A stretch of 28,450 nucleotides of DNA from Candidatus Woesearchaeota archaeon (GCA_964419915.1 CAYQQE010000001.1:9509-37958); one strand, 5' to 3'. Positions 1 through 28,450 are shown, counted from the stretch's first letter. A program made the numbers and translations. Notes: a model not told the origin generated them from the sequence alone.

Positions 1-513
1 TAATTTGTCATCAATACAAATCCCAAAAATACTATCGCCTTTTTGTATATAATTAAAAGTGGTTTCTCCTTCTTTACCTTTTTCAATACCATCACTATCT
101 TTCAAAAAATTAATAAAATCTGGATCAATTTCAATACTTTTTTCAATCTCCAATGGATCAATAATATAACAAGTATAAATGTCATCACCACCCAAATTAC
201 TCTTAATATCATTTATTTTACTTTCTCCAAACATCCACCAACATTTACGCATCAACGAAGCTATTTTAGTCTGTACCTCAAAACTACTTCCTTTAACACC
301 AACTTTCTGTGGCATACAAGCTAAAGGAAAAAAATTAAAACCAAGATGAGTTTTGCTAGCAACCCTAACACTAAAAGCACATAACATATCACTCCAACCA
401 ACTTTCCCCCTTTCAACAAACATCAAAACCACACTAACAATTATCAAAAAGCTAATTAAAACCAAAATCAATTTAACCAAAACTTCAACTGTTAATTTTC
501 CTCTTTTTATCAT
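1..513 (-). CDS. Pilin-like protein with class III signal peptide; 3' end truncated by window edge; absent from supplied ORF track
   Basis: Manual translation from ATG at 513 is open to position 1: MIKRG|KLTVEVLVKLILVLISFLIIVSVVLMF...CAFSV...LAC...RKCWWMFGE...TC. Basic-Gly cleavage site, Glu at +5, hydrophobic helix, several Cys. Starts 31 nt after the stop of 545..1195 on the same strand. Lys at +1 is atypical. Confidence 0.8.
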   Translation of the reverse strand, partial: MIKRGKLTVEVLVKLILVLISFLIIVSVVLMFVERGKVGWSDMLCAFSVRVASKTHLGFNFFPLACMPQKVGVKGSSFEVQTKIASLMRKCWWMFGESKINDIKSNLGGDDIYTCYIIDPLEIEKSIEIDPDFINFLKDSDGIEKGKEGETTFNYIQKGDSIFGICIDDKL

Positions 514-544: not shown

Positions 545-1195
545 TTAGTTTTCTTTTTCAATCTTCCTATAATTCTCAACAAAAGTCCTAATATCTCTAA
601 TATATTGATTAACATCACATTCCGAAGCAGGGCAATACTTAGGAATAATTTTCTCAACACTATCCAAACCAGAACCAACATAAGCAGGTCCAGAAATTAA
701 CCCATACCACGCAACAATACCATCATCCCAAGATCTATAAACACACCATCTATTATTGTATTTAGAAACACATTTCTCAGCAACATATTCTAAATTACCA
801 ATACTTCTTGTATGCTTAGCAACACCAAACTTCCCATAAGTAGATTCCTTAGCAAAAAAAGCCAAAGCAAAAGCAGGATCAATTCCATACCTAACACCAT
901 CATTAAAAAAAACATTTCCTTTACCAACAGCAGGAGACCCAGCATTTTTTAAGACTTTATCAATAGTTTCAATAGAAATACTTGGTTTTCCAACAACTTT
1001 CAAATTCCCTAAAGGAACATCAACTATCTCCCTTGGTTTTGAATCATTCAACCTCTCACCAACACCCCATCTAAAAAAACCTTTCTCATAACCTTCACTA
1101 CTAATATTACTAACAGCCTTCCACACACCCAACATTCCTAATAACAATACCAAACCCAACAAAATAAAAATCAAACTATTAAACTGTCCTTTCAT
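545..1195 (-). CDS. Class III signal-peptide (pilin-like) protein with C-terminal lysozyme-like / GH73 glucosaminidase-type domain
   Basis: N-terminus MKG|QFNSLIFILLGLVLLLGMLGVW fits the archaeal prepilin-peptidase motif. C-terminal half has YGIDPAFALAFFAKESTYG (catalytic-Glu helix of the lysozyme superfamily), SIGNL, YRSWDDGI and IIPKYCP...NQYI. ATG overlaps the TAA of the upstream TadC-like gene (TAATG at 1197-1193). Confidence 0.75.
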   Translation of the reverse strand: MKGQFNSLIFILLGLVLLLGMLGVWKAVSNISSEGYEKGFFRWGVGERLNDSKPREIVDVPLGNLKVVGKPSISIETIDKVLKNAGSPAVGKGNVFFNDGVRYGIDPAFALAFFAKESTYGKFGVAKHTRSIGNLEYVAEKCVSKYNNRWCVYRSWDDGIVAWYGLISGPAYVGSGLDSVEKIIPKYCPASECDVNQYIRDIRTFVENYRKIEKEN

Positions 1196-3255
1196 TATCC
1201 ACCTCTCAATATCATACTGGCAAATCCCTTAAATACTAAAACACCTATTAAACTAACTAAGCAATACAACATAGTACTCCTAAATAAATTTTTACCTAAA
1301 CCATATTCAACACTTAACCTATCATCACCACTTTCAATTTTTTCACTCAAAACAGTCAATATGATTATAACTTGAACAACATATAAACCAACAACTAATT
1401 GGAAAAAATAAGGAGGAATAACATTCTGTACATCAAAAGGTAAGCCTTCCAAACTAGTTCCAATAACAGGAATCTCACCTTCAAACCCCTCTGTACCCAA
1501 CTCACTTAACCTACCAATAACAGAACTTATCAAAGAAGCAATAGCCACAACAATTCCAGCTATAACTGGTGTCAAAAAACCAATCTGACCTTTCATAGAT
1601 GTTACAACATCCGACAACAAATCCTTCAATCTTTCTTCAACCTGCCTAATACTCTTAGCATACTCAGAAATACTAATCAAAGCTCTACTAACAACACCAT
1701 AACCTTTCCTCGCAGTTTCTATCATAACTCTCATAGAACTACTTATTAAAGGACTTGGAAAACCAAGAATAGCTCCTCTTTCTTTATCAAATATTGCTCT
1801 TTCAATTCCCATACCAAATCTCAAATTAGTATCAACATTTTTAAAAAATTTTCCAGTTTCTGTCCCTTCTTTATCACCTGCAACTTTACCAACAGCTAAT
1901 TCTACAGGCAAACCATCTTCTATCCTATTACCTAATTGAAATAAAGAACTAGCAAACTCCCTCTCCAATCTCTTTGTATTTTCTCTTATTTTAATTATGT
2001 CTTTGGTTTTTAATTTATAATAACTACCTAAACCAAAAGCTAAACTCAAAGGCAAAAATAAACTTAATATTAAAGGAACCAAACCTAATGGTCCAGTACA
2101 AACATCTCCCCTACATTTATAATCTAACAAACCATTCAAAAATAAATTATCAGGATATAAATAATGTAATATAATAGGGCTTAACCCAATCAACAATATT
2201 AAAACCCCTAAAAAACCACCAATCAAAAGCGCATTTCCAACATCGATTTTGAATCCCCCTTCCAACTCTCTTTCACCATAACCAGTTGGCCTTTTACTTA
2301 AAATAGAATTACCTAACCACAAAACAAAAATTGGTAAAAAAATATTATACAAAACAGCCAAATGATACCATCTTATTAAACCACCCATAAAACTTCCTAT
2401 TAATGGAAATATAACCAAACCCAAGATAGGTAAAACAACACCCAACATATGTAACATTGTAATAGGATTTTTTAAATCATGTGCAAAATGCAACATCTTT
2501 TCATAAGTTCCATTAACCATAACATCCAAAGCCCTGTCTAACATCTTTAATCTTCCTTCTTCTTCCACTTCATACAAACTCCCTTCTATTAAATGAAAAC
2601 TCTCTACAAAATTCTCCTCATCTTTCCATACTCTCAAATAATTATCCAAAGATTCAGCAACATTACTATACCTCCCAGTTTCCACATCCCACAAAACTTT
2701 CATCAAATCTAAATTCAAAGGTTCACCAACATGTTCAGCTGCAAACCTTACAGCATGTTCTAAATTACTAGTATGCCTCATATACATCATAATATACAAA
2801 ATACACAAAACCATTTGATTCCCTGCTTTTAATCTCCATTTATTAGCTGAATAATTAGGATAATTACTAACATACACATAACTAACAACTCCAACTATTA
2901 ACCACAAAGCAACAATCAGAAAATTTACTTTCTGAATAAAACTTCCCGTAGATGCATTAAATATAGCAGTTAAAAAACCACTGAACAAACCTAAAAAAAT
3001 AAAAAACAATAAAACTAAAACACCTAAACTAACAACACCAACCGGTTTAACATCTAAATGCGTAACCCTAATACTTTCTTTTAATTTTTCTAAACTCTTT
3101 TTATCAGGACCGATATTTAAAAATTCAGCAAATTTACATGCTTTCTCATAAAAATTCCTATTTCTCCATATATTTTTCCTAAATTCTGTATATTCTATAG
3201 AAGGAACATACTCATTTATATCATATCTTTCAAATATTTCATCTATCTTATCCAT
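1195..3255 (-). CDS. Type IV pilus membrane platform protein (TadC/ArlJ-like, two T2SSF domains)
   Basis: 686 aa polytopic protein with two soluble T2SSF-like segments (MRHTSNLEHAVRFAAEHVGEPL; LFQLGNRIEDGLPVELAVGKV), each followed by TM helices. Directly downstream of the pilus ATPase (1 nt gap). Confidence 0.88.
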   Translation of the reverse strand: MDKIDEIFERYDINEYVPSIEYTEFRKNIWRNRNFYEKACKFAEFLNIGPDKKSLEKLKESIRVTHLDVKPVGVVSLGVLVLLFFIFLGLFSGFLTAIFNASTGSFIQKVNFLIVALWLIVGVVSYVYVSNYPNYSANKWRLKAGNQMVLCILYIMMYMRHTSNLEHAVRFAAEHVGEPLNLDLMKVLWDVETGRYSNVAESLDNYLRVWKDEENFVESFHLIEGSLYEVEEEGRLKMLDRALDVMVNGTYEKMLHFAHDLKNPITMLHMLGVVLPILGLVIFPLIGSFMGGLIRWYHLAVLYNIFLPIFVLWLGNSILSKRPTGYGERELEGGFKIDVGNALLIGGFLGVLILLIGLSPIILHYLYPDNLFLNGLLDYKCRGDVCTGPLGLVPLILSLFLPLSLAFGLGSYYKLKTKDIIKIRENTKRLEREFASSLFQLGNRIEDGLPVELAVGKVAGDKEGTETGKFFKNVDTNLRFGMGIERAIFDKERGAILGFPSPLISSSMRVMIETARKGYGVVSRALISISEYAKSIRQVEERLKDLLSDVVTSMKGQIGFLTPVIAGIVVAIASLISSVIGRLSELGTEGFEGEIPVIGTSLEGLPFDVQNVIPPYFFQLVVGLYVVQVIIILTVLSEKIESGDDRLSVEYGLGKNLFRSTMLYCLVSLIGVLVFKGFASMILRGG

Positions 3256-3256
3256 T

Positions 3257-5443
3257 TTACCTTTTTTTCACTTCTTCTCCCAACCACCTTTCCCATTTAC
3301 TAAAAATCATCTTATTATCCAAACCACCAACCTCTTCTAAAACTACATCACTTATCTTATGAAACATATCGTTACTCAAAATAACAAATCCTGCTTCTAA
3401 TAATTCTAAATTTTTACTTTTATCAGCATATCTAACTAAAGTTTCTTTAATCTTAGCTCTCAATAGTATATTTTCCCAAACAGCATTCCAATCACCAACC
3501 CATTCCTTAACACTTCCCGCTATATTCTTCAAAACATCACTATCTCCATTTACTAAATCATCACTAATCTCTAATTCATCTTTCTTAGGATTATATTTCA
3601 TCAAATCAACAAAACCTTGCTCTCTTAAAGGATCCTCTTCCCAACCCTTCCTAACTTCAGTTACTTGCTGTAATCTTTTCCAAGTATGCAAACCATCAGG
3701 ACTCTTTATAGGATTACAAACAAGTATCACATCAGTTGCTTTAAAACTTGTCTTAGGAACTTTCAAATCATTAACAACTCTATCAAAAACACCATAAGGA
3801 CTATCACCATGTATTGTTCCAGCAACAACATTTGCTAAAGCACCAATCCGCATAGCCTCATACAATGCTAATGCTTCTTTACTTCTTATTTCACCGACAA
3901 TTAAACTACTATCACCCATTCTCAAACTTGTTCTAATCCCTTCATCAGCAGCCATTTCAGAAGTAGCTTTTGTTATAGCAGCTCTAACTTTCATTGGTTG
4001 AATATTATATCCTAATCCCCTTAATTTTTCTGTAGGCAATTCCATTGTGTCTTCTATTGTAATTATCCTGTACTTCCTCATAATTTCAACTAAACAAGCA
4101 CCTAACAAACTTGTTTTCCCTGAACTCCTAGTCCCTGCTATTAAAAGACTCCTTGAACCATCAATCAAAAAACTAATCAAACCAGCACTTAAGGGGTTCA
4201 ACATTTTATTTCTAATATACAAAGGCAAAGTCCATGGCATATCTCTATGTCTCCTTAAAGAATAACCCAAACCCCATGGATTCAAAGGACTTCCAACAAC
4301 AGCAACTCTTACTCTAGCATCAGGTAGTATTAACTCAGTATCTAAAACAGGATTTGCTTCATCTAAAGGTCTTCCACTTAACATCCTCAATCTAGATGCC
4401 CAACCAACACCATCCTCCCTAGAAGGTATTATATTAGTAACACATTCTCCATAATCTTCATGAACAACAAACACTGGTGTTTCTCCTATTGGCCCATTAA
4501 TAACAATGTCTTGTATTTTCTTATCTTTTAACAAAACCTCAATAAATCCAAAACCAACAGTATACCTAACTAACATCTCAGCTAATTCATCAATCTCACT
4601 TAAATCCATTTCAATTTTCTCTCTTTCACTTAATTCAATCAACAAATCTTTACTGATATTAAAAAAAGTTTGTCTCATCCTTTCAGGGTCTATAAATTCT
4701 TCTGCTCTTGGTTCATGTCTAGATAGAATCACCTTTGCCATATCTAATAAATCATATTTATCTTCAGAAATCAGAAACTCCCTAGGCATTATATGATACA
4801 AATATTTAACATCATTAGGAACTTCAAAAATACTAACCCTAATATTTTCAATTTCATAACTATCTAACTCTACTCCGTCTAATGGTTGTCTAGCCATTAA
4901 TCTAGTAAATACAAAATTTGGCATTACACTTGGTCTAAGTAATTTCTTATACAACTCCCTATTTCCTAAAACATAACCGTCTAATCTACCCTTCACTTTA
5001 TTGATTAATTTAGTTTTATCCAACATAAACAAAATCTTCATCAAAACCTTCTTATATTCCTCATCAAGACTCTCTCTCAACAATCTCCTTAATTCAACAT
5101 ATGCACCAATAGGATCACTTAACAACAAACCCAAAACAAATCTTAAATCTCCATACATAGCAGCCATGACAGAAATATCTCTTTGTTTAACAATCTGATT
5201 GTACAAACCACTAATTTCCACCAACATCTGTGTCTGCTCATAATCATAAGAATAATTTCTTCTATGTATTAAAACAACCCTATTAACAGGTCTTCTTATC
5301 AAATTAGAGATAACATTTGCCATGCATCTGCTATCTTCCTCAAGAGAAGCACTAAAATTAGCTCCAAAACAATTTATTTTCATAACTGTTTCATTACCCT
5401 CTTTTACAATTTCGTAACTTCCTGCCTTTTTTTCCATTACCAC
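3257..5443 (-). CDS. Type IV pilus / secretion ATPase (TadA/CpaF/VirB11 family)
   Basis: Walker A AGTRSSGKT, Asp box RIITIEDTMEL, Walker B LIVGEIR, His box GTIHG, and KIQDIVING. Start is either GTG 5443 or ATG 5437. Confidence 0.93.
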   Translation of the reverse strand: MVMEKKAGSYEIVKEGNETVMKINCFGANFSASLEEDSRCMANVISNLIRRPVNRVVLIHRRNYSYDYEQTQMLVEISGLYNQIVKQRDISVMAAMYGDLRFVLGLLLSDPIGAYVELRRLLRESLDEEYKKVLMKILFMLDKTKLINKVKGRLDGYVLGNRELYKKLLRPSVMPNFVFTRLMARQPLDGVELDSYEIENIRVSIFEVPNDVKYLYHIMPREFLISEDKYDLLDMAKVILSRHEPRAEEFIDPERMRQTFFNISKDLLIELSEREKIEMDLSEIDELAEMLVRYTVGFGFIEVLLKDKKIQDIVINGPIGETPVFVVHEDYGECVTNIIPSREDGVGWASRLRMLSGRPLDEANPVLDTELILPDARVRVAVVGSPLNPWGLGYSLRRHRDMPWTLPLYIRNKMLNPLSAGLISFLIDGSRSLLIAGTRSSGKTSLLGACLVEIMRKYRIITIEDTMELPTEKLRGLGYNIQPMKVRAAITKATSEMAADEGIRTSLRMGDSSLIVGEIRSKEALALYEAMRIGALANVVAGTIHGDSPYGVFDRVVNDLKVPKTSFKATDVILVCNPIKSPDGLHTWKRLQQVTEVRKGWEEDPLREQGFVDLMKYNPKKDELEISDDLVNGDSDVLKNIAGSVKEWVGDWNAVWENILLRAKIKETLVRYADKSKNLELLEAGFVILSNDMFHKISDVVLEEVGGLDNKMIFSKWERWLGEEVKKR

Positions 5444-16023: not shown

Positions 16024-17201
16024 TTTTACCAATAATTATGGGGACCATTGCAGGAACCATTACAGGCTTAATCCCAGGGATCCACACAAACCTAGTAGCA
16101 ATTCTTCTTATCTCTATTTCACCAACATTACTAAAAATAACAACACCACTAAGTCTGGTTATTTTTATTACTTCAATGGCAATAACTCATACATTCTTAG
16201 ACGCAATACCTTCAATTTTCTTAGGAGCCCCAGACTCAGACCAAATCTTATCAGTTTTACCGGGACATAAACTTTTATTAGAAGGTCGTGGCTATGAAGC
16301 AATTAAATTAACAACTCTAGGAAGTTTCTTAGGTTTAATAACAACATTATTGCTTTTCCCTTTCTTCATTTTCATTCTAAGGTTCTATGACTTAATAAAG
16401 AATTCAATCCCATATATCTTAATAGTTTGCTCATTTTTCCTAATAATAAAAGACAAATCAAAATTTCCAGCACTTTTCATCTTTTTATTATCTGGTTCCT
16501 TAGGTTTAGCCGTTTTCAAACTAACTCTATCTCAACCACTTCTTCCAATGCTTTCAGGATTATTTGGTATCTCAACACTAGTTATAAGTATTCAAAATAA
16601 AACAACAATACCAAAACAAAAAAACACCCCTATAAATCTAACTAAAAAACAGATAGCAAAATCAATTTCTCTAGGTACCTTAGCATCTACAATAACAGGA
16701 TTACTACCAGGAATAGGGGCATCGCAAGCAGCTGTAATAGCATCTTCTTTATCTAAAAAATGGTCAAAAGAATCTTTCCTAGTTTTAATAGGTTCAATTA
16801 ACACAGTTGTTATGGTCATTTCAATAGCAGCATACTATGTTATTCAAAAAGCCCGTAATGGTGCAATTGTAGCAGCCTCAAAAATTATTCCAGAATTAAC
16901 TTTATCCAATTTAATAACAATCTCTATAGCAATAGTAATAACAGCTATTTTAGCTTCCTTAATAGCACTAATCACAGCAAAAACATTCTCAAAACAGATA
17001 ACAAAATTAAATTATCAACTTTTATGCATCTCCATTATTATTTTAGTAACAACCATTGTTTTCATCTTCTCAGGATTCCTAGGTTTATTAATTTTAACAA
17101 CCTCAACATCCATTGGAATTCTACCACCATTATTAAATACAAATAAAAATCACCTGATGGGATGTTTGATTCTACCAACAATACTTTACTTACTACTTTA
17201 A
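16020..17201 (+). CDS. TctA-like tripartite tricarboxylate transporter permease (DUF112)
   Basis: Highly hydrophobic 393 aa with a duplicated GxxPG motif (GLIPGIHTN; GLLPGIGAS), SIFLGAPD and SVLPGHKLLLEGRG. Confidence 0.85.
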   Translation: MILPIIMGTIAGTITGLIPGIHTNLVAILLISISPTLLKITTPLSLVIFITSMAITHTFLDAIPSIFLGAPDSDQILSVLPGHKLLLEGRGYEAIKLTTLGSFLGLITTLLLFPFFIFILRFYDLIKNSIPYILIVCSFFLIIKDKSKFPALFIFLLSGSLGLAVFKLTLSQPLLPMLSGLFGISTLVISIQNKTTIPKQKNTPINLTKKQIAKSISLGTLASTITGLLPGIGASQAAVIASSLSKKWSKESFLVLIGSINTVVMVISIAAYYVIQKARNGAIVAASKIIPELTLSNLITISIAIVITAILASLIALITAKTFSKQITKLNYQLLCISIIILVTTIVFIFSGFLGLLILTTSTSIGILPPLLNTNKNHLMGCLILPTILYLLL

Positions 17202-20200
17202 AACCATTTTCCCAATCCTTCCTGTTTCTCAGGATCTTTTCCAAATATACTTTCAACCTTCATTTTAACTAACTCTAAACTTTGTTTTAGATAAGGAGGT
17301 AAAGCATACCTCTCAGCCAAACTAATAGCAGGTTCTAAATATTTAGTAATACCTCCTTCAAAAATAGTAAATATGATATTTCCGCCACAACCACAAATTC
17401 CACTCAAAGGAGGCCTTCTAAATTTTTCATTACATTTAACACATCTAAACTGCTGCATACTAAATTTCCTTAAATTACCTCTAATATCTCTAATAAAATG
17501 TTTCTCTATCACCAATCTAGCAACATCCATTTCATTAACCGCTCTTATTTTCTCTGCAATCTCCATCTGTCCCTTAACTTTCTCCTCCATTGTTGGTAAT
17601 AATTTATAAGCACTACATCTAACACCCTTATTCAAATCCTCAACATTATGAGTAAAACCAAAATCATAATATTCCTTCTCTGTTTCTAATCTATCTTTTA
17701 ATTGTCTTATCTTAACTTCATAAGGATATTTATATGTTTCAGCAGCCTCATACAATTCCAAAGGATATTTCCAAACAACATCCATACCATGAACCATATC
17801 ATCAACCTCAGAAGGAATAATCTTAGAAGAAATAACTAAAGGTGCATCCATACTTCTACCACCCCTTTTATCAGGCAAATATTGTCTAGAAAAATTTAAC
17901 AAACCATCCATCAACAACATTAACCCAATTTCATCACCATCACAATCCCTCCTATGTGCAGCATGATACAAAGGATGTGCTAAAAATCCTTGAGTCTTAC
18001 TAAATCCAATTATTCTTCCAACAACACCTGCAGAGGTATGTGGTGCTAAACTAATAACCAAATGACCAACCAAATCTTCTTTATTCTCAAGATGGTAATA
18101 TGCTTTTTCTCCATAAAACATAACAAGTAAATCATCAATAAACTTACTAACTCTAAAAAAAACTTTGTCTGCACCATCCTCCAAACTTTCTTCACAAGCA
18201 GGTAAAATTACATCTTGAACCTTCAACTCAATTAATTGATCATTACTTACTAACTCCTTACCATCAACATCATTCTTATACCCCAATTCTTTCAATTTTT
18301 TAATACTACTTCCTATTTCCTTAGCTTTAAAATGTGTAAGTGCCATCTCAGTCATGTCATATCTTATTGTTCCATCTTTATTCACATAAACATTATGTAA
18401 AGCTCTCAAAATCCCTTTACCTAAATGTTCTGGTATATGATTCTTATTAGATGTTCCTCTAACTCCTTTGATTAAATCAGGAGAAAACCTTAAGTCTAAA
18501 TTTTTTTTAATATTACTAAAAATCTCCTTAATATTTATACTTCGCTTATTATAAGAACTACATTTTCCATGTGTACCACATTCCTCAGTTCTGATAAATT
18601 TTTTACATCCCTCACAAAAATACAATTTTCTTGTTTTACCACCACAAAAATCGCAAACAAAAAACACAGTTTCTCTATTACATTTCTCACAAAAATAATT
18701 TGGAAAATCTCCAATTATCTGCCCTTTTTCTAAAGCACTTTGAAAACTTCTTAACCTCCCACCTTCTTTACCAACTGGAAATAAAACGTGAGGACTTCCT
18801 GTTAGTTTCCTCATCTTAGCTTTCTCAGGTCTCCCCATTCTTGCACCAATAAAAGTACCACTCTTATCCCTTAATTTTACTTCAGATAAAATATTCACCA
18901 AAACCAAAACATCTTTACTTTTACTTTCTTTCACTTTTTCAAAATCACTAATATCCTTACTATAATACCCCAATGAACACAAAAGAGCCTTGCAATCATC
19001 GCTTTGTACCACAACAGACTCTTTATTAATAACTACATGAGGGATTCCTAACAACTCTAAAACCCTCTTCACATCAATCTCTCTCAAATCACTATTAATA
19101 TTAAAAATTAAAGGTAAGATTAGTCTATCCTTTTCAATAATACCTTTACTAAACCATTCTAGTAAACTTAAAAATTGTTCTTTATTAATATCTTTCCAAT
19201 GATAAGTATACCTTGGATGTAAGGGGATGTCTAATTTCTTACTAAATCTTATAGCAATATCAGCAGAAATTTTCTTATTAATCGGATTTTCAAACAAGAT
19301 TTCTAGTTCCTTTTCACTTAACCCCACTAACGAAGATAATTTTACAAAATCTAAACCACCAAACACCTCTGTAACTTTTTTCTTAACATCTTCAATCCAC
19401 CATTCTTCACAATAACCAACTGGAACTAAAACATGATTATTTTCAGAAAAATCACCATAATTAACTAACATATCCCCCAAAAATAATATTTCTTCTATTT
19501 CAGTTAATTTATTCTTTACTACATCTAAGAATAAAACATCTCCATTTTTCAATCTAACCAAAGGTCCTTCTAAATCATCGCAAACACTCAGAACAGTAGA
19601 TTTACCAGGTCTTTCTACTTTTAATTGGGTTCCAATAGCAATAAAATTATTCAAAACAAACATTGTAAGAGGATGTATACCTCTAGAAGAATAACCACTC
19701 AATCTACTCCTTCCATACCTCAACCTAAAGCCTCCCTTAGCTAATGGATGAGTCAGTACAGGTCTACCAGCAACTAAATCAGAGATAAAAGTAAAATCAG
19801 GACTAATACCCTCTTCAAGTTTTTCTTCTTCACCTTTGCCAGCTTTAATTTTTTTTTGTAATTTCAAAAAATCCTTTAAAAAACCCCACTCTAACCCAAA
19901 ATCCTTACCCCACTCTGCCAATCTCTTCCATAACTTACCAGATTTTTGAGCAATACCCTCTGCAATAACTAAAGCAACCCCACCTCTGAGTCTATTAGTC
20001 TCTACCCTACTCAAATCCTTATAATTACTAACCTCTATTTTTTCTGTAGGATCTCCATTAATCTCAACAGGAATTCTTTCCATCAAAAACTCAACTTCTT
20101 TTTCATTTGGCATATATTGTAAATTTGTAACCCTCTCATGATAATCCCTCAACTCTGTAACATATCTTTTGATTTCTAAATCAGTAGGATCATAAACATC

Positions 20201-20716
20201 ATAACCCCTTAATTTTCTAACATAATCTACCAAAATAACAGAAAAAGCAGCAGCAGTTCCTCCAGCACCCCTAATAGGACCAGCATACCATGCAGATAAA
20301 TATTTCTTACCATCCCCTCTATCTTTTATTTTTAATTCTATAAAACCTTCTAAAGGAGCAGAAACAACACCCAAAGTTAAATATGCAAAACCGACCCTTA
20401 TAGCTGTTTCCATAGCTTCTTTCTCATTTTTAAAAGAACAAAATTTTCCTTTTAAGGTCTCTTCAGCAATTTTCAAAGCAATCCTCCAATCTAAAATACC
20501 ATATTCTGTTTCTAATTCTTTGATTCTTTCAGCAATACCTGAATCAAAAACCTGTCCAACCTCAACACTTACCAAGCCCTCAACTCTTTTACCAATACCA
20601 GTAGCTAAAGGAATATCCACCTTATTCTCAGGATCTAAACCTTTTTTCCTAGCTTTTCCAGCTATTTCATAAGCCCCTTTAATTACATTATCCAAAGCCA
20701 AAAAATAATCTTCCAT
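17198..20716 (-). CDS. polC: DNA polymerase D large subunit DP2
   Basis: YAGPIRGAGGT, GGFRLRYGRSR, FIGARMGRPEKA, catalytic RRDCDGDE, Cys4 zinc motifs, C-terminal PIP-like QEGLGKWF. No intein seen. Confidence 0.98.
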   Translation of the reverse strand: MEDYFLALDNVIKGAYEIAGKARKKGLDPENKVDIPLATGIGKRVEGLVSVEVGQVFDSGIAERIKELETEYGILDWRIALKIAEETLKGKFCSFKNEKEAMETAIRVGFAYLTLGVVSAPLEGFIELKIKDRGDGKKYLSAWYAGPIRGAGGTAAAFSVILVDYVRKLRGYDVYDPTDLEIKRYVTELRDYHERVTNLQYMPNEKEVEFLMERIPVEINGDPTEKIEVSNYKDLSRVETNRLRGGVALVIAEGIAQKSGKLWKRLAEWGKDFGLEWGFLKDFLKLQKKIKAGKGEEEKLEEGISPDFTFISDLVAGRPVLTHPLAKGGFRLRYGRSRLSGYSSRGIHPLTMFVLNNFIAIGTQLKVERPGKSTVLSVCDDLEGPLVRLKNGDVLFLDVVKNKLTEIEEILFLGDMLVNYGDFSENNHVLVPVGYCEEWWIEDVKKKVTEVFGGLDFVKLSSLVGLSEKELEILFENPINKKISADIAIRFSKKLDIPLHPRYTYHWKDINKEQFLSLLEWFSKGIIEKDRLILPLIFNINSDLREIDVKRVLELLGIPHVVINKESVVVQSDDCKALLCSLGYYSKDISDFEKVKESKSKDVLVLVNILSEVKLRDKSGTFIGARMGRPEKAKMRKLTGSPHVLFPVGKEGGRLRSFQSALEKGQIIGDFPNYFCEKCNRETVFFVCDFCGGKTRKLYFCEGCKKFIRTEECGTHGKCSSYNKRSINIKEIFSNIKKNLDLRFSPDLIKGVRGTSNKNHIPEHLGKGILRALHNVYVNKDGTIRYDMTEMALTHFKAKEIGSSIKKLKELGYKNDVDGKELVSNDQLIELKVQDVILPACEESLEDGADKVFFRVSKFIDDLLVMFYGEKAYYHLENKEDLVGHLVISLAPHTSAGVVGRIIGFSKTQGFLAHPLYHAAHRRDCDGDEIGLMLLMDGLLNFSRQYLPDKRGGRSMDAPLVISSKIIPSEVDDMVHGMDVVWKYPLELYEAAETYKYPYEVKIRQLKDRLETEKEYYDFGFTHNVEDLNKGVRCSAYKLLPTMEEKVKGQMEIAEKIRAVNEMDVARLVIEKHFIRDIRGNLRKFSMQQFRCVKCNEKFRRPPLSGICGCGGNIIFTIFEGGITKYLEPAISLAERYALPPYLKQSLELVKMKVESIFGKDPEKQEGLGKWF

Positions 20717-20718
20717 AC

Positions 20719-22284
20719 CTAAAATCTCAACATCTTAACTTCTCTAGTTTGCAAATTAACAATCGGTACTCGAGAAGGTTCAGGATCGTGCCCAACTTTT
20801 TCTTGAAAACTAGTTCTATTTTGCCAACAACTACCACATATTAAGGTTACCCCATTATAATTACTAATTTTTGCTTTATGAATATGTCCAGTAACAAAAA
20901 AATCAGGAACTCTCTCTATCACCAATGGATCAATTTTAGAAGGAACATATAAAGTTGAACCATGTGCAGGAGCTAAATGTCTTTTCTGCAATAATAATTT
21001 CATAAGCATATCAACACTATCATAACCACCATTATTTCTTATCTTTTTTACCTCAGAAACATAATAATCAAAACAATAACCATGGTATAACAAAACATTA
21101 AAACCATCAAAATCCATACTAGATGAGATATTTACTAAACTTGGATTACTAACCATTACAACATTAGATAGGTTCCATAAAGACCTTGCATATTTTTCAT
21201 AAATAACAGGTTGTGGTTCTGCTATCCTCGAAGCATCATGATTACCAGGGCAAATAATTATTTTAATATGTTCGGGTACCATCTTTAATAACTCCGCACA
21301 TTTTTCATATTGTTCTTCAACACTTTTAAGAACAAGTTCCTTATCCTGGTCTGGGTAAATACCTACTCCATCAATTAAATCACCAACAATGAATAAATAT
21401 TTCACTTTTTTAGCAATTCTTCTTTGGATAAAATTACCAGACTTTCCACTAATCCACCCCAAAAATTTTAAAAAACTTTTCTCCAAAAACATATTACTCC
21501 CAACATGGATATCAGAAATAAAAACTGCGAATTCATCATTTGGAGATTTCTTTAATTCCATAAAAGGGATACCTGGAAAAAATACCTCATTAACAAATAA
21601 TATCCCATCACCCATAACACCACTTACACCAATTACTTCATCTAAAACAATCTCGTCAACAAAACCGTTGATTTCCTCTCTATTTTTATTGACAATAACA
21701 TTGATTTTACCACTAGGATCCTCTAAAGTCAAAATGCAATTTCCATTTTTACTATTCCTCTTATCATAAACAACACCAATCAAAGAAACTTTTTCTCCTC
21801 TACATTTACCATTAACTTTACTAATAGACACTAAGTTGTCCATTCTTTTCCTTAACAACTCTGACAAAACATCATATCTTCTTCTAAAATAAGAAACAAA
21901 AGTTTTTACTTCCATTTTACTAGACATTTCAGCATAAGAATTCAAAATTTTTACGCTACTTTCTTCTAACCTAACTTCTTTGTTGATCTCAGGAACCTTA
22001 TAACCATTCAAAACACCTATAAAATTTTCATATAGTTTATTGTTCTTCCCTTTCTCTGAAAAAACTTTAGAGCTCTCAAAATCTTCCCAGTTAAGATTCA
22101 AAGAAGAATTAGATAAAGAAAATAAAACATCTCTATTTAATAACAAAAATTTATTAGTTATAATCTTCTTATCGATCAATTCTAAAACATTATCATCCAT
22201 ACTCTCATCTAATAAATCTGGACTAATCAAAATATTTTTATCTAAAAACTTTAATACAATTTCCTTCCTATTATCCCCAATCAT
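20719..22284 (-). CDS. polB: DNA polymerase D small subunit DP1 (proofreading exonuclease)
   Basis: OB domain plus calcineurin-like motifs SDIHVGS, GDLIDG, PGNHD, YHG, GHIH. Confidence 0.97.
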   Translation of the reverse strand: MIGDNRKEIVLKFLDKNILISPDLLDESMDDNVLELIDKKIITNKFLLLNRDVLFSLSNSSLNLNWEDFESSKVFSEKGKNNKLYENFIGVLNGYKVPEINKEVRLEESSVKILNSYAEMSSKMEVKTFVSYFRRRYDVLSELLRKRMDNLVSISKVNGKCRGEKVSLIGVVYDKRNSKNGNCILTLEDPSGKINVIVNKNREEINGFVDEIVLDEVIGVSGVMGDGILFVNEVFFPGIPFMELKKSPNDEFAVFISDIHVGSNMFLEKSFLKFLGWISGKSGNFIQRRIAKKVKYLFIVGDLIDGVGIYPDQDKELVLKSVEEQYEKCAELLKMVPEHIKIIICPGNHDASRIAEPQPVIYEKYARSLWNLSNVVMVSNPSLVNISSSMDFDGFNVLLYHGYCFDYYVSEVKKIRNNGGYDSVDMLMKLLLQKRHLAPAHGSTLYVPSKIDPLVIERVPDFFVTGHIHKAKISNYNGVTLICGSCWQNRTSFQEKVGHDPEPSRVPIVNLQTREVKMLRF

Positions 22285-23486
22285 AAACTTAGAGTATCTT
22301 TCAAAACCTCCTCAACTTTTAGAACATTAGCAGAAGGTAAGGCTAAAGTAATTTCTTTACTTCTTCCATATCTCCCTTTACTGATTACCCTGCCAGTAAT
22401 AATTCCCATCATATCTAATTCATTGATTATATCACTAACTCTCCTCTGTGTTAATGGTTTTAAACCAACTTTCAAACAATTATCTCTATAAACCCCAAAA
22501 ACATCTCCTGTAGATATACCTTTATTATTCAAAGCACAAACAGAAATTATAGAATACAAAGTCAATTGAAATTGTTTTGGTTGTGTATTAATTATTTCCA
22601 AAACCATGTCATTCTCAATTTTCTCCTCAGCCTCATCAATATGTTCAATACCTATACTGTTATCACCTTTCCTCTCTGCTAATTCTCCGGCCACCCTTAA
22701 CAAATCCAAAGCTCTTCTAGCATCACCATGTTCTCTAGCTGCATAAGCAGCACATTTTTCAATAACACCCTTTTTTATAACATTCTTCCTAAAACTTAAT
22801 TTAGACCTCTTTCTTAAAATATCTTGCAATTGTAAAGCATTGTAAGGTGGAAATACTAATTCCTCTTCACTTAAGCTACTTTTCACCCTCGCATCAATAT
22901 TATTCATGAAAAACAAATTATTTGATATTCCAATTAAAGATATTTCTGCATTTTGTAATTCTGGATTCAACCTTGTTAGATTATATAATATCCCATCACC
23001 CATCTTATTAACTAATTGGTCAATCTCATCTAAAACTAATATTAACAATTGCTTCTTATCATCGATAGCTTCAATAAATATTTTGTAAACCTCATCTGTT
23101 GGTAAACCGGTTGCGGGTACCTCTTTCCCAAACATTCTGGCTAATTGTGCTATTAATCTATATTCAGTATCAGCCACCCTTTTTAATTTACAATTCAAAT
23201 AAAAAAACTTTAAATCTATACCCTTCTCTTTTACAATCTCATCTACATTATTTATAATAGATTTTATAGTTAATGTTTTCCCAGTCCCTGCTTTACCATA
23301 AATAAATAGATTGGATGGCTTCTCTAACTTTAAACTAGGAGCCAAAATATTAGCAACGTGCTCTATTTGTTTCTCTCTATGTGGGATAGTCTCAGGAGTA
23401 TAACTGGCTTGTAAAATTTTTTTATCAATAAATAATGGTTCCTTCTTTAAATACTTTTCAAAAAACCCAGATAATTTATTTGGCAT
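22281..23486 (-). CDS. cdc6: Orc1/Cdc6 replication initiator
   Basis: PHREKQI, Walker A GKAGTGKT, Walker B LDEID, GDARRALDLLR, C-terminal winged helix (RVSDIINELDMMGII...GRYGR). Confidence 0.97.
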   Translation of the reverse strand: MPNKLSGFFEKYLKKEPLFIDKKILQASYTPETIPHREKQIEHVANILAPSLKLEKPSNLFIYGKAGTGKTLTIKSIINNVDEIVKEKGIDLKFFYLNCKLKRVADTEYRLIAQLARMFGKEVPATGLPTDEVYKIFIEAIDDKKQLLILVLDEIDQLVNKMGDGILYNLTRLNPELQNAEISLIGISNNLFFMNNIDARVKSSLSEEELVFPPYNALQLQDILRKRSKLSFRKNVIKKGVIEKCAAYAAREHGDARRALDLLRVAGELAERKGDNSIGIEHIDEAEEKIENDMVLEIINTQPKQFQLTLYSIISVCALNNKGISTGDVFGVYRDNCLKVGLKPLTQRRVSDIINELDMMGIITGRVISKGRYGRSKEITLALPSANVLKVEEVLKDTLSL

Positions 23487-23508
23487 TCTTTTTCAGATAC
23501 TCAACATA

Positions 23509-23516
23509 TATATAAA
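23509..23516 (-). promoter_or_regulatory. TATA box of cdc6-DP1-DP2 operon
   Basis: AAAAG-TTTATATA 22 nt upstream of the cdc6 ATG. Confidence 0.65.
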
Positions 23517-23543
23517 CTTTTATATCTTAAAAAATAACCCTTA

Positions 23544-23813
23544 CACCTATATTTCCATTGGAAAAATAACAAGAATAATTTCATTCTAAATAAAAATTTA
23601 TTGTTACTATAACGCACCCCAACTTCCTATAGAAACTAAAAAATAACAACAATAATGAAAAAGCTTAAAATATACTTCCAATATAAAATTAACTTAAAAA
23701 CAAAATATATTACAATTTAAATAAAACTATCCTAACTAAAACTCCACAAGAAATGCACCCTGGACTAATCAAAACATTTTTATCTATCTTATACTCCAAA
23801 AGAAATCAAGGTG
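23544..23813. promoter_or_regulatory. Candidate replication origin (oriC) with ORB-like repeats flanking an AT-rich segment
   Basis: Minus strand: TTCCAATGGAAATATAGGTG (23563-23544) and TTTCTATAGGAAGTTGGGGTG (23635-23615). Plus strand: CTCCACAAGAAAT (23742-23754) and CTCCAAAAGAAATCAAGGTG (23794-23813). AT-rich 23637-23741 lies between them. Directly upstream of cdc6. Confidence 0.75.
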
Positions 23814-24073
23814 TCAGAGGACCTAAAACTTATTTTTGGATATATCTTTTATTAATATTACTCCACTAAAACATTATAAAATTTGATAATATAACTATTA
23901 CAACCAATTCAACCTATTTACATCTATTATCCTATTTTAAATCCTTTTCTTAGAGAAATATACCCTCTTAACAAACCATAACTTTTTATCAATTTAAAGC
24001 AAAAATACAATCCTTATTCAAACTCAAAAACAATCTTCCAAACATATATTATCAAAAAATAACTCTCATTTCA

Positions 24074-24088
24074 CGAAAACTTTATAAA
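24074..24088 (+). promoter_or_regulatory. BRE + TATA box of PRC-barrel gene
   Basis: CGAAAAC-TTTATAAA ending 24 nt before ATG 24113. Confidence 0.7.
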
Positions 24089-24112
24089 CAAGTATTGATT
24101 TTAAAAGCATTA

Positions 24113-24373
24113 ATGACAGAAGAAAAATTATTTGCTAGACAATTTAGTGGTAAAACCATTATAAGTAAAACAGGTAAAAAATTTGGGGAAGTAAGTAATC
24201 TAGTCTTTGAAACAAGAACTGGTGAATTAATACAAGTAGTTCTTAAAAATCCAACAATTTACACAGCTAATCTGACTTTAGAAAGGGATAAAGATGGGAA
24301 TTCACTGATTCCATTCTCATCCGTAATTGCAGTAGGCGACTTTGTAGTTATTGCAGAAGAAGATATTGTTTGA
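24113..24373 (+). CDS. Single PRC-barrel protein (CdpB-like)
   Basis: FSGKTIISKTGKKFGEVSNLVFETRTGEL...LIPFSSVIAVGDFVVI. ATG 24113 is preferred over TTG 24095 given the promoter position. Confidence 0.88.
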   Translation: MTEEKLFARQFSGKTIISKTGKKFGEVSNLVFETRTGELIQVVLKNPTIYTANLTLERDKDGNSLIPFSSVIAVGDFVVIAEEDIV

Positions 24374-24422
24374 TTTCTCAGTTAAGTTTATAAAACCATG
24401 ATTTATCTTTTTAAACTCTAAA

Positions 24423-26261
24423 ATGAACTTCAAGACTACAAAAGAAATAAAAGTATCAAAGAATTTAGTAGACCAGATTATAGGTCAAGATCAAGCCGTT
24501 AATTTAATTAAAAAAGCAGCAAAACAAAAACGGCATGTTGTGTTGATAGGCGCATCAGGTACAGGAAAATCTATGCTCGGTCAAGCCCTATCAGAATTAT
24601 TACCAAAAGAAAAATTAACAGATATCTTGTCCATACCAAACACCCTAGACGAAAATTCTCCAAAAATAAAAACCATATCTAAAGGTTTAGGTAAAAATAT
24701 AATCACAAGATCCAGACTTCAAACAACATCTTATCTTAAATACCAAAATATACTTTTTTTTATATTAGTAATTCTAGCAATGATTACACCTTGGTGGATA
24801 AGGAAACAATATGGGGATATATTAGCAGCAGCAGCTTTGATAAGTTCTATGTTGTTCCTCACAACTTTCATTATTTTTATGAACTTAAATAGAAAAATAA
24901 AAATCCAAGAAAATACCCCTAAACTATTAATTGATAATTCAGATAAGGATCAAGCACCATTCATTGATTGTACAGGTGCACATGCAGGTGCCCTGTTAGG
25001 AGACGTTCTACACGATCCATTACAATCAGGTGGCTTAGGAACACCAGCACACGAACGTTTGATTCCAGGAGCAATTCATAAAGCAAATAAAGGAGTCCTC
25101 TTTGTAGATGAAATAGCAACATTAAAACCAGAAATGCAACAAGAATTATTAACAGTATTACAAGAAAAAAAATATCCAATAACAGGACAATCAGAACGTT
25201 CTTCAGGGGCCATGGTTAGATCAGAACCAGTACCAGCCGATTTTATTTTAGTAGCAGCAGGAACTTTAGATACAGTAAAACAAATGCACCCAGCTTTACG
25301 ATCAAGAATTCGTGGGTATGGTTATGAAGTCTACATGAATGAAACAATGCCAGATACCAAAGAAAACATAGATAAATTAGCACGTTTTGTTGCTCAAGAA
25401 ATCAAAAAAGATAAAAAAATTCCACATTTTACAAGATCTGCAGTTGATTTTATTATTCAAGAAGCAAGAAAAAGATCAGGTAAATCAAATTCCATAACGT
25501 TAAGATTAAGAGAATTAGGTGGTTTGATAAGAGCTGCTGGGGATGTAGCAAAAGAAGAAAATTTATCTTTAGTTACACCATTACATATTCAAAAAGCAAA
25601 ATCATTTGCAAGAACATTAGAACAACAAATAGCAGATAAATATATAGAAAACAAAAAAGAATATCAAATAATTTCAGTAATAGGAACAAAGATAGGTCAT
25701 ATCAATGGCTTAGCTGTGATAGGTTCAAAAGATTCATTCTCCGGAATTGTTCTTCCAATAGAATCAGAAATTACAAAAGGAAATCAAAAAACAGAATTCA
25801 TAGCAACAGGCCAACTCGGTAAAATAGCAAAAGAAGCAGTTAAAAATGTCTCAGCTATTATTCTCAAGTACTTTGGAGAAGATATAAAAGAATATACAAT
25901 TTTCACACAATTCCTTCAAACAGAATCAGGAGTTGAAGGAGACTCAGCATCAATAGCAGTAGCAACCTCAATTATTTCAGCCCTAAAACAAATCCCAATA
26001 AGACAAGACACAGCATTAACAGGTTCATTATCAGTTAGAGGAGATGTTCTAGCTGTTGGTGGCATAACACAAAAAGTAGAAGCAGCAATAGAAGCACGAA
26101 TCCCAAGAGTAATAATTCCAAAATCAAATGAAAAAGATGTTTTACTTACAAAAGAAGATTTTAAAAAAATAAAGATCATTCCTGCCTCAACAATCAAAGA
26201 AGTTCTTAAAGAATCTCTTGACTGGAAAGGGAAAGAAGATATTCTTGAAAAAATCAAATAA
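24423..26261 (+). CDS. lonB: Archaeal membrane-anchored Lon protease (LonB)
   Basis: DQIIGQD, Walker A GASGTGKS, two-TM insertion, Walker [15 protein letters not shown], catalytic Ser EGDSAS and Lys VGGITQK. Confidence 0.96.
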
Positions 26262-26291
26262 TTTAAAAACATAAACCTCTTCCTAATTCCT

Positions 26292-27956
26292 ATGTTTAAA
26301 GAACAAATTATCAAACTTCTAAAAAAACAAAATATTAAAAATATAATTTTAGAAATTCCGCCATCACCAGAACTAGGGGATTATGCCTTTCCATGTTTCT
26401 CTCTATCTAAACAACAAAAACAACCACCTCAACAAATAGCTTTAGAACTTTCAAAAAGACTAACACCAACACAAATAATAACAAAAATACAACCAACAGG
26501 ACCATATATAAATTTCTTCATAAACAAAAACAAATCAGCAGAAATTATTCTAAAAAAAATATTAAAAGAAAAAGATAACTACGGTAAAACAAAATCAAAA
26601 AAACAAACCATTATGGTGGAATATCCATCACCAAACACAAATAAACCACTCCATTTAGGTCATCTAAGGAATATATCGATAGGAGATTCAATTTCAAATA
26701 TCTTAGAGTTTCAAAATAACAAAGTAATAAGAACAAATCTAAACAATGATAGGGGTGTTCATATCTCAAAATCAATGTTAGCATATCAAAAATGGGGTAA
26801 TAACAAAAAACCAAATAAAAAATCAGATCACTTTGTAGGAGACTTTTATGTTTTATTCTCTAAAAATTCTCAAAAAAATCCAAATTTAGAGCAAGAAGCT
26901 CAAGATTTACTTAAAAACTGGGAACAAAAAGACAAAGAAACAGTAAGATTATCAAAAAAAATGAATTCTTGGGCCTTAGAGGGTTTTAAAGAAACATACA
27001 AAAAGTTCAATGTAAAACCTTTCAACAAAACATATTATGAAAGTCAAATATACAAAAAAGGTAAACAATTAGTTTTAAAATATCTTAAAAAGGGAATCTT
27101 CAAAAAAAGAAAAGATAATGCAATAATAATAAATTTAAAGGATTTAGGAGAAAAAGTTCTTCTGAGACCAAATGGGACAACAGTTTATATAACACAAGAC
27201 CTGTGTCTAGCTCAATTAAAAAGTTATCAATTCAACTTAGATAAATCCATATATGTTGTAGGTAACGAACAAGATTATCATTTTCAAGTCTTGTTTAAAA
27301 TACTCAAACTTTTGGGATTAAAATCAAATTTTTATCACCTGAGTTATGGAATGATATTCTTACCAGAAGGAAAAATGAAATCAAGAGAAGGAATAGTTGT
27401 AGACGCTGACAATATAATCCAAGAGATGCAAAATCTAGCAAAAAAAGAAATTCAAAAAAGAAATATGATATCAAAAATAAAAATTAAAAAAACATCCCAT
27501 CAAATAGCACTAGCAGCAATAAGATACTTCATGTTAAAACAAGATATTATTAAAGATATTTATTTTAATCCAAAAGAATCAATTTCTCTTGAAGGCGACA
27601 CTGGCCCATACCTCCAATACACACACGCAAGAGCAAATTCAATACTCAAAAAAGTAAAACACTCCCCAAAATTCACTTATAAAATAACCACCCAAATAGA
27701 AACAGAAATTATAAAAAAACTTCAACAATTCCCAGAATTAATCGAAAAATCAACCAACAACCTAAAACCAAATCTGTTAGCAAACTACATCCATGAATTA
27801 GCCCAATTATTTAATGAATTCTATCATTCATGTCCAGTTATCAAAGAACCAAACAAAGATATTAAAAATACACGAGTGTCTATTGTAAAAGCAACAAAAC
27901 AAGTTTTAAACACATCTTTAAATCTTTTAGGAATCACACCACTAAATCAAATGTAA
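26292..27956 (+). CDS. argS: Arginyl-tRNA synthetase
   Basis: GDYAFPCF, VEYPSPNTNKPLHLGHLRN (HIGH), KMKSREG, DALR-type C-terminus (GDTGPYLQYTHARANSIL). Confidence 0.97.
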   Translation: MFKEQIIKLLKKQNIKNIILEIPPSPELGDYAFPCFSLSKQQKQPPQQIALELSKRLTPTQIITKIQPTGPYINFFINKNKSAEIILKKILKEKDNYGKTKSKKQTIMVEYPSPNTNKPLHLGHLRNISIGDSISNILEFQNNKVIRTNLNNDRGVHISKSMLAYQKWGNNKKPNKKSDHFVGDFYVLFSKNSQKNPNLEQEAQDLLKNWEQKDKETVRLSKKMNSWALEGFKETYKKFNVKPFNKTYYESQIYKKGKQLVLKYLKKGIFKKRKDNAIIINLKDLGEKVLLRPNGTTVYITQDLCLAQLKSYQFNLDKSIYVVGNEQDYHFQVLFKILKLLGLKSNFYHLSYGMIFLPEGKMKSREGIVVDADNIIQEMQNLAKKEIQKRNMISKIKIKKTSHQIALAAIRYFMLKQDIIKDIYFNPKESISLEGDTGPYLQYTHARANSILKKVKHSPKFTYKITTQIETEIIKKLQQFPELIEKSTNNLKPNLLANYIHELAQLFNEFYHSCPVIKEPNKDIKNTRVSIVKATKQVLNTSLNLLGITPLNQM

Positions 27957-28001
27957 CCTAAAAACACAAACTTTAAATAACCTCCTTTATTAAGATAAAA
28001 A

Positions 28002-28442
28002 ATGCCAATCATAGGATTCAATTTTGAAAAATTATATGTAGAAAGAATTAAAAACCCACAAGAAGTAAAAGGTCAAATCAATATAAAGAACAATACCAAA
28101 ATAACAGATATTGTAGAGGAAGATGTTCCTGATAGGAAAAAAGGAGGAGTTCTAAGATTTAGTTTTTCATATAATGCAATATACGAACCTACATTTGGTA
28201 AAATAACTATTAATGGGTTTTGTTTGTTTTTAGATAACACCAAAAATAATAAGGAAATTCTCGATAAATGGAAAAAAGACAAGGAATTAGACCAAAAGCT
28301 TATGATGCAAGTATTAAACTTCATATTAGCAAAATGCAATATAAAAGCCCTATCTTTATCCCAAGAGGTTAACTTACCACCACAAATTCCTTTACCAAAA
28401 TTAACAGCTAAGAAACAACAAGCAGAACAATATATAGGGTAA
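28002..28442 (+). CDS. Hypothetical protein, possibly SecB-like fold
   Basis: Four alternating beta-strand segments, then an amphipathic helix and a NLPPQIPLPKL tail. TTTAAATA at 27972-27979. Confidence 0.55.
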   Translation: MPIIGFNFEKLYVERIKNPQEVKGQINIKNNTKITDIVEEDVPDRKKGGVLRFSFSYNAIYEPTFGKITINGFCLFLDNTKNNKEILDKWKKDKELDQKLMMQVLNFILAKCNIKALSLSQEVNLPPQIPLPKLTAKKQQAEQYIG

Positions 28443-28450
28443 GCATATCC

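Follow-up and report, generated by a model that had tools for sequence, protein, structure and literature searches.

A gene on the minus strand of a 28,450-nucleotide stretch of DNA from a Candidatus Woesearchaeota archaeon (GCA_964419915.1, CAYQQE010000001.1:9509-37958; this whole stretch, G000:C1:9509-37958 in our numbering, is referred to below as the window) probably encodes an enzyme that cuts bacterial cell walls and leaves the cell by means of a pilin-type signal. The gene (545..1195) lies within a type IV pilus-like operon, and its product of 216 amino acids (aa) starts with a class III-type leader and a hydrophobic helix, which a linker joins to a glucosaminidase module. In our reading, to which we give a probability of roughly two in three, the protein is an exported murein endo-β-N-acetylglucosaminidase of glycoside hydrolase family 73 (GH73) type, carried on a prepilin-type N terminus and aimed at bacterial walls. 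An original prediction, made from the sequence alone, had described it as a pilin-like protein bearing a peptidoglycan hydrolase.

The translation of 545..1195 contains the leader and all of the motifs that had been pointed out. Residues 1–34 (1094..1195, minus strand) comprise the leader MKG, followed by QFNSLIFILLGLVLLLGMLGV, with a putative cleavage site before Gln4 and an α1-like hydrophobic helix (residues 3–34 in the AlphaFold2 (AF2) model); we refer to this segment as the carrier. It has the class III pattern of a short basic leader ending in [KR]-[GA] and about 20 hydrophobic residues thereafter, and Gln at the +1 position resembles EppA-type substrates (PMC2910488). Residues 35–60 (1016..1093) form a low-confidence linker, probably flexible to judge from its predicted local distance difference test (pLDDT) scores, and residues 61–216 (548..1015) form the GH73-like catalytic module. 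The AF2 model has a mean pLDDT of 88, with the module at 90–99, whereas the linker region averages 46–61 per 10-residue block over residues 31–60 and falls below 50 at residues 35–48. Within the module are the motifs YGIDPAFALAFFAKES (103–118), GNL (133–135), YRSWDDGI (153–160) and KYCP (186–189). The four cysteines are at 142, 151, 188 and 193; the latter two co-vary over 65 homologues (C,C in 7–8 rows and A,N in 56–57), as would be expected for a disulfide of an extracellular protein. The ATG (1195–1193) overlaps the TAA (1197–1195) of the upstream 686-aa platform gene, so that start and stop codons share one A in a minus-strand TAATG, the coupling to a TadC-like platform that had been proposed. 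On the other side, 31 bases separate the stop codon from the start of the next gene at 513, which is pilin-like as predicted, with an MIKRG/KLTVE start and a hydrophobic helix. Because 12 synonymous and 6 non-synonymous codon differences separate the gene from a 97%-identical relative in another assembly, 545..1195 is, on the codon counts, a real gene under purifying selection.

Structure and profile searches assign the module to GH73, in agreement with the lysozyme-like fold proposed for it originally. The AF2 model superposes on LytB (7pj3) over 146 residues with a root-mean-square deviation of 2.4 Å and a VIA-align Z score of 19.1. Other LytB entries gave Z scores of 18.4 and 16.9, and the top 19 rows were all GH73 or GH73-like. 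Among the remaining comparisons, AtlE (Z 15) and Ecd09610 (Z 15.3) were followed by Acp, Auto, FlgJ, TM0633 and AtlA (Z 10.5–13), while GH23 lytic transglycosylases and goose lysozymes reached only Z 8–10. The ranking by Foldseek agrees, its top 13 matches all being GH73 with probability 1.00. A profile built from the 65-row alignment retrieved the same family from the PDB, with the glucosaminidase domain of Ecd09610 at 7e-6, Atl of S. aureus at 1e-3 and LytB of the pneumococcus at 2e-3, and also C. perfringens Acp. The subfamily comprises 1,471 representative clusters at E ≤ 1e-3 in an exhaustive search, and two of its members exceed the curated cut-off of 30.2 bits for the Pfam family PF01832 (Glucosaminidase), P0013 with 46.0 bits and P0018 with 34.2; nine of 11 close homologues match that family weakly.

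Eight residues, Leu82, Ser87, Glu117, Ser118, Gly121, Asn134, Tyr187 and Pro189, are invariant in the 65-row alignment. The invariant E-S pair aligns with the catalytic-Glu motifs of Atl (LLETGNG), Ecd09610 (HETGNG) and LytB (LESNWG), and the Glu of the K-E-S helix (codon GAA, 845..847, minus strand), for which a catalytic role had been claimed, is thus the predicted general acid. We equate Glu117 with Glu585 of LytB because, over one and the same alignment span, the family profile gives 21.3 bits to the wild-type LytB chain but 3.8 fewer, 17.5, to the chain of the E585Q mutant. Tyr187 and Pro189 correspond to the GH73 Tyr motif after the β-hairpin (YATD-type), the profile KYaP aligning with KYAP of Ecd09610. 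The assignment of the module as a divergent GH73 glucosaminidase that retains its catalytic Glu, and hence as a putative enzyme, is well supported.

The position of the gene, directly after the platform, is occupied by other wall hydrolases in related genomes, which is the most informative line of evidence on it. The operon is syntenic through RPA, YdjM and RadA in three relatives from the same order (G002, G014 and G039) and in a metagenome-assembled genome (MAG) of the same class (L009 = L105), and the platform protein is 53–54% identical, and in the same position, in G002, G003, G006 and G014. In G002, a member of the same family, the post-platform slot is taken by a protein of 211 aa that has a hydrophobic helix at its N terminus and contains an SLT domain (1.4e-12); the orthologue of the window's 222-aa gene comes after it. 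A third arrangement is found on a 727-bp ENA contig from another groundwater site (L125, protein P0011), where the 3′ end of the platform gene meets the identical TAATG junction. The carrier of P0011 is 96% identical over 51 residues, its codons differing synonymously at 9 positions and non-synonymously at 2. In the DNA alignment, homology stops in the linker at about codon 51 and gives way to a 3D domain (PF06725, MltA/YuiC-type, 6.7e-18). Coverage of this contig is about 2×, and a chimera is possible, but less likely given that the part it shares with the window genome has diverged. One post-platform slot therefore accommodates three murein glycan-cleaving domain families, GH73-like, SLT and 3D, which argues that the selected function of the slot is the cutting of murein glycan strands. 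Further hydrolases are found elsewhere in these operons: G014 has SLT (7.7e-34) in the last gene and M23 (5.9e-22) in a different pilin-signal gene, and the last gene of G002 encodes NlpC/P60 and a β-lactamase fold.

These replacements bear on the nature of the substrate. The enzyme might instead cleave β-1,4-linked N-acetylglucosamine (GlcNAc) outside murein, in chitin, in the S-layer glycans of an archaeal host or in the archaeon's own N-glycans, with a partner that is archaeal, as in cultured DPANN. Lysozyme-fold enzymes do include chitinases, and the GH23-type chitinase of Ralstonia matches our model at Z ∼9; the hosts of cultured DPANN archaea are, to our knowledge, all archaeal. The Z scores of 15–19 for GH73 enzymes contrast with that value of 9, however, and the Amidase_3 and M23 domains encoded in the same operon, like the SLT and 3D domains that take the module's place, belong to murein-specific families. 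Pseudomurein is β-1,3-linked and contains no N-acetylmuramic acid (MurNAc). We consider a non-murein substrate quite improbable.

The operon is of the archaeal type IV pilus kind, as had been recognized: an ATPase and a platform stand directly upstream of the gene, and the genome encodes a prepilin peptidase. The first gene (3257..5443, minus strand) encodes a 728-aa FlaI/TadA-like assembly ATPase (Pfam T2SSE 7.5e-15; NCBIfam TadA-family 1.7e-34 and FlaI 1.4e-33). The second (1195..3255, minus strand) encodes the platform, a polytopic TadC/FlaJ/GspF-like membrane protein with a weak Pfam T2SSF match (E 0.085) and an Atlas feature score of 0.97 (230/256 shared) to an archaeal “GspF domain” cluster that is commonest in Woesearchaeota. 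The GH73-like gene is followed on the minus strand (contig coordinates G000:C1:1-11000) by pilin-like genes of 222, 234, 141, 70, 98, 358, 160 and 212 aa, the first of which is Cys-rich and cut by the window edge (1..513), and then by a gene for a 652-aa protein, downstream of which are RPA, YdjM, a small open reading frame (ORF) and RadA. A loose class III pattern is found in 46 of the 2058 ORFs of at least 60 aa genome-wide, about 10 of them consecutive in this operon, a clustering that makes these leaders more than a chance occurrence; others are grouped on contigs C15, C39 and C21. Neighboring operon genes also have a [KR]-G leader end followed by Gln. The prepilin peptidase (Peptidase_A24, 44–47 bits, with a weak Arc_PepC_II match in addition) is encoded at G000:C5:6733-7581.

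The last gene of the operon (G000:C1:3189-5147, minus strand), which starts MKKG/AVIGII, carries a second set of wall hydrolase domains, Peptidase_M23 (2.9e-24) and Amidase_3 (5e-23). Only the first 177 and last 97 residues of this 652-aa protein match the ∼260-aa (233–265) proteins of eight relatives, and the M23 and Amidase_3 domains are, by this alignment, therefore an insert in a conserved carrier. Inspected by eye, the Amidase_3 domain retains its zinc and catalytic residues. A second locus, G000:C5:6733-11664, comprises the A24 prepilin peptidase, a 370-aa protein with a class III signal and a 627-aa M23 protein; the M23 domain of the latter is 93% identical to the operon copy, and its ORF is uninterrupted despite a TAA reported in the genome-search match.

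We propose the following sequence of events. The A24 prepilin peptidase of the genome would remove the short basic leader MKG, and the remaining hydrophobic helix would keep the protein in the membrane. The ATPase and platform would then either insert it, as a minor and probably tip-proximal subunit, into a short filament or leave it as a surface-anchored unit. The linker of ∼25 residues would allow the enzyme module to reach outward, where Glu117, acting as general acid, would cleave the glycan strands of a bacterial wall. It would do so jointly with further class III-signal proteins from this operon, including one or more with an M23 endopeptidase and an Amidase_3 domain. The target would be bacterial, since the archaeon itself lacks murein, and might be the wall of a host, of prey or of dead cells. 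Export by the pilin route is plausible and well placed in its genomic context, and the coupling to the platform gene would fit a low-copy component that is assembled early. Leader cleavage, filament incorporation, enzyme activity and a bacterial partner are all steps that we infer.

Several observations weigh against this reading. On the side of the enzyme, the window protein itself scores 20.1 bits with PF01832 (E 1.1e-3), below the cut-off, and a single-sequence search of the module against the PDB returned no match, so that its tie to GH73 runs through profiles and fold comparison only. We identified in the module no second catalytic carboxylate of the kind on which some GH73 enzymes rely, and no wall-binding domain (LysM, SH3 or PG_binding) is recognizable in the 216-aa protein. 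At the position of the customary HxH, the M23 domain of the 652-aa protein reads HLD, as does that of the unrelated P0156. Hydrolase folds that have degenerated frequently take on binding roles, and the lack of an identified second catalytic residue would suit an inactive wall-binding module that merely tethers the archaeon to bacteria. Against such an adhesin stand the catalytic Glu and its surrounding motif, invariant in 65/65 homologues, and the purifying selection on the gene; we regard it as very improbable.

On the side of export, the AF2 model contains no globular pilin domain after the helix; the linker leads directly into the enzyme. Incorporation into a filament is therefore presumptive, and we speak of a pilin-signal carrier rather than of a pilin. 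Of the original description as a pilin-like protein, the class III-type leader and the helix stand; the term is, on the model, valid for signal and helix only. In eight relatives, moreover, the last operon gene lacks the hydrolase insert, and the operon therefore serves some purpose for which hydrolases are not required. In a search of sequencing runs, no RNA run contained the locus of 545..1195. A floppy linker with no pilin fold behind it is what one would expect if the class III signal were simply a cleavable membrane anchor, as in the bindosome, and the ATPase and platform set the hydrolases on the cell surface without a carrying pilus, there mainly to harvest wall fragments (GlcNAc, amino acids) from bacterial debris and not to attack living cells. 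Substrate-binding proteins and proteases in archaea are known to bear class III signals, and in Sulfolobus the Bas system brings such cargo to the surface with no pilus to be seen (PMC2910488). The archaeon, with its tiny genome, probably scavenges building blocks. The operon nevertheless encodes 70- and 98-aa pilin-like proteins, which are typical filament subunits, and it is conserved in relatives without the hydrolase insert; neither point is decisive against a bindosome-like arrangement, which we judge unlikely compared with a wall-directed enzyme on a prepilin-type N terminus.

The distribution of the domain likewise counts against a wall-directed enzyme at this locus, in that it is rare. 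The GH73-like domain was not found in any of 60 sampled relatives from the same order, and of 400 near-complete genomes from the phylum, 15 (in 15 of 281 genera) contain it. Its absence from the same-genus genome G001 is uninformative; that assembly is 72% complete and lacks the platform gene as well. At least eight of the 15 phylum loci lie among class III-signal ORFs, and five of the GH73-like ORFs have such an N terminus themselves. The combination of a class III-like N terminus and a GH73-like domain is found in proteins that include P0005, P0018, P0024, P0030, P0053, P0078, P0130 and P0156, the last of which additionally carries M23. In other DPANN archaea the domain terminates giant proteins of 1,800–2,400 aa.

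The best-matching non-archaeal relatives in named genomes come nearly without exception from Ktedonobacteria or other Chloroflexota, with several paralogues per genome. Ktedonobacteria (Dictyobacter, Thermogemmatispora and Ktedonobacter), which are mycelial bacteria, have many subfamily paralogues, mostly short and with an N-terminal membrane anchor. In an 87-row tree, which is unrooted, the window's clade (97% support) comprises 10 sequences from its own phylum, two from Woesearchaeota, one from Iainarchaeum and ten others, and all 25 Chloroflexota sequences form a separate clade, also with 97% support; a larger FastTree analysis agrees. The resemblance to Chloroflexi proteins noted originally thus holds in that Ktedonobacteria are the nearest named bacterial relatives, but a recent transfer from Chloroflexota to the archaeon is unsupported, the DPANN and Chloroflexota clades being separate. 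Because GH73 as a whole is bacterial, an ultimately bacterial origin of the domain is likely.

The source is, judged by its genes, a small-genome DPANN archaeon of Woese-/Pacearchaeota type, as had been supposed. The assembly measures 603,709 bp (79% complete), its relatives within the order range from 0.5 to 1.3 Mb in genome size, and the contig with the operon also bears archaeal genes: Cdc6/Orc1, the PolD small subunit, Hef/XPF, LonB, RPA and RadA. The same set (Cdc6, PolD, Hef/XPF, LonB, RPA and RadA) rules out contamination by a bacterial contig from the CPR (candidate phyla radiation). No Mur ligase was found in the 79% complete assembly, and an autolysin acting on a wall of the archaeon's own is ruled out at that level of completeness. 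Many groundwater metagenomes, and some from soil, contain the window stretch. The class-level relative L009/L105 (G145), with its syntenic pilin operon followed by RPA, YdjM and RadA, is a public MAG of 36% GC labeled “uncultured Methanosarcinales archaeon”; a genome search puts it in the window genome's class, and the label therefore looks wrong on these sequence grounds.

Other class III-signal and hydrolase genes are found in and beyond the operon. The 358-aa pilin-signal protein (G000:C1:6239-7315, minus strand) has a conserved C-terminal module of 180 aa that appears SLT-like by eye (H-E-T-G, L-S-I-T, W-D-x-x-Y-N-I), and its language-model features score 0.95 to SLT-bearing clusters. Pfam, a PDB profile search and hhalign against the true SLT domain of a relative gave no support, and its AF2 model is poor (pLDDT 53); we dropped the SLT assignment on the three empty searches. 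Its homologue P0165 adds NlpC/P60 behind the module, and the G014 protein at the equivalent position carries M23. A separate cluster at G000:C15:3065-10244 comprises six class III-signal genes, three with a classical archaeal pilin N terminus (KG/VSPLIATVLL), so the genome possesses two pilin systems or more. Encoded at G000:C19:4234-7296 is a surface protein of 1020 aa that has CarboxypepD_reg repeats and weak NlpC/P60 (2.8e-4) and SLT (0.08) matches; it may belong to the “large extracellular hydrolase” class known from the literature.

At its far end the window probably contains a replication origin. On the plus strand, GC skew lies between −0.3 and −0.57, strongly negative, over window positions 1–24000, whichever way the genes run, and climbs to about 0 beyond ∼24000 (24000–28450). 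Near this change lie cdc6 (22281–23486), an ORF-free gap of ∼930 nucleotides beside it (23487–24422), the PolD small subunit gene (20719–22284) and an adjoining 1172-aa ORF (17198–20716), which is probably the PolD large subunit. We take this region, with its gap, to be the probable origin; boxes resembling origin recognition boxes (ORB) near the gap had been flagged originally.

Compared with bacterial GH73 enzymes (LytB, S. aureus AtlE and Atl, Acp, flagellar FlgJ and Ecd09610, a C. difficile phage endolysin), the window module shares the fold (Z 11–19) and the helix-end Glu in E-S/T-x-x-G, and with Ecd09610 also the K-Y-A/C-P motif. It is only 14–22% identical to them, however, and falls in a subfamily of its own that is common to DPANN archaea and Ktedonobacteria. 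The protein also lacks their cell-wall-binding repeats, and, its producer being without murein, it is no autolysin. Among archaeal enzymes, the GH73 hydrolase Danwoldo of Halogranum salarium is experimentally bactericidal (Strock et al., 2025, PMC12352652). Danwoldo and Woldo likewise have an archaeal PF01832-type glucosaminidase module aimed at bacteria, but Danwoldo is Tat-secreted and has PG_binding_1 domains, whereas the window protein has a prepilin-type signal and its gene lies within a pilus operon. The accompanying survey of archaeal peptidoglycan hydrolases found genes especially in Nanoarchaeota and a recognized Sec/Tat signal in only 32%, with no mention of pilin or class III routes (PMC12352652). 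Large SLT/GH23 proteins of up to 3,000 aa have been described from Pace- and Woesearchaeota, and bacterial hosts or prey proposed (2021, PMC8204110; Vigneron et al., 2022, PMC9723730). These giants come from the same kind of organism and have the same proposed bacterial-wall target, but no pili or pilins were mentioned, and the window protein differs in its length of 216 aa, its GH73 module and its coupling to a platform gene.

Modular type IV pilins, defined by IPR012902 and described in bacteria only, include PilB with a vWA module and PilC with a lectin module from Streptococcus sanguinis (Raynaud et al., 2021, PMC8179133); the paper mentions neither archaea, hydrolases nor peptidoglycan. 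Here too a functional module is joined by a short linker to a pilin N terminus, for putative presentation on a filament, probably at its tip, but PilB has a complete pilin fold where the window protein has the helix only. In the Sulfolobus bindosome, BasEF/BasABC, class III cargo is cut by the prepilin peptidase and its surface placement needs a FlaI/FlaJ-like pair (PMC2910488). Both systems would thus handle non-filament cargo with class III signals, for sugar-binding uptake in that case and as interchangeable murein hydrolases in ours. Among the GH73 enzymes and lytic transglycosylases of bacterial trans-envelope machines, FlgJ and EtgA, both found in our structural matches, are wall cutters encoded in and delivered by an appendage-assembly system, but they open the producer's own wall for assembly, whereas the window archaeon has no murein. 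A census of archaeal type IV pili mentions neither hydrolases nor DPANN archaea (PMC4858521).

The bacterial host suggested in the original prediction is, as an idea, already published (PMC8204110, PMC9723730, PMC12352652), wall hydrolases having been taken as pointers to bacterial DPANN hosts in 2021, 2022 and 2025; for the present archaeon a bacterial partner is presumptive. We found no paper on the pilin-carrier arrangement: in the collection searched none joins Woesearchaeota, pilins and peptidoglycan, and among the matches listed, work on DPANN archaea, pilins and peptidoglycan, as judged by titles and abstracts, describes no such arrangement.

The occurrence of interchangeable wall cutters at a pilus operon suggests a surface apparatus directed at bacteria. 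Genomic hints of this kind date back to 2015, and we know of no DPANN archaeon yet shown to live on a bacterium. The locus offers a concrete and testable mechanism, with a prepilin-type leader and pilus motor as the export route and a small, soluble enzyme module, and it provides a natural experiment in which one operon slot holds three murein glycan cutters across related lineages. Prepilin-type export may also account for archaeal wall hydrolases without a recognized Sec/Tat signal in the 2025 survey. More tentatively, and in our view somewhat doubtfully, the operon could build a “lytic pilus”, a type IV filament or short pseudopilus whose interchangeable murein-hydrolase minor subunits cover all three classes of bond in murein, and which docks on or breaches living bacteria with cargo matched to the wall chemistry of the partner. 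The post-platform slot would then supply the glycan cutter and the last subunit the peptidase and amidase inserts, and the result would be cross-domain episymbiosis or predation by Nanoarchaeota-type DPANN. If the enzymes are filament-borne, the modular pilin principle would reach archaea, and would extend from adhesion modules to lytic enzymes.

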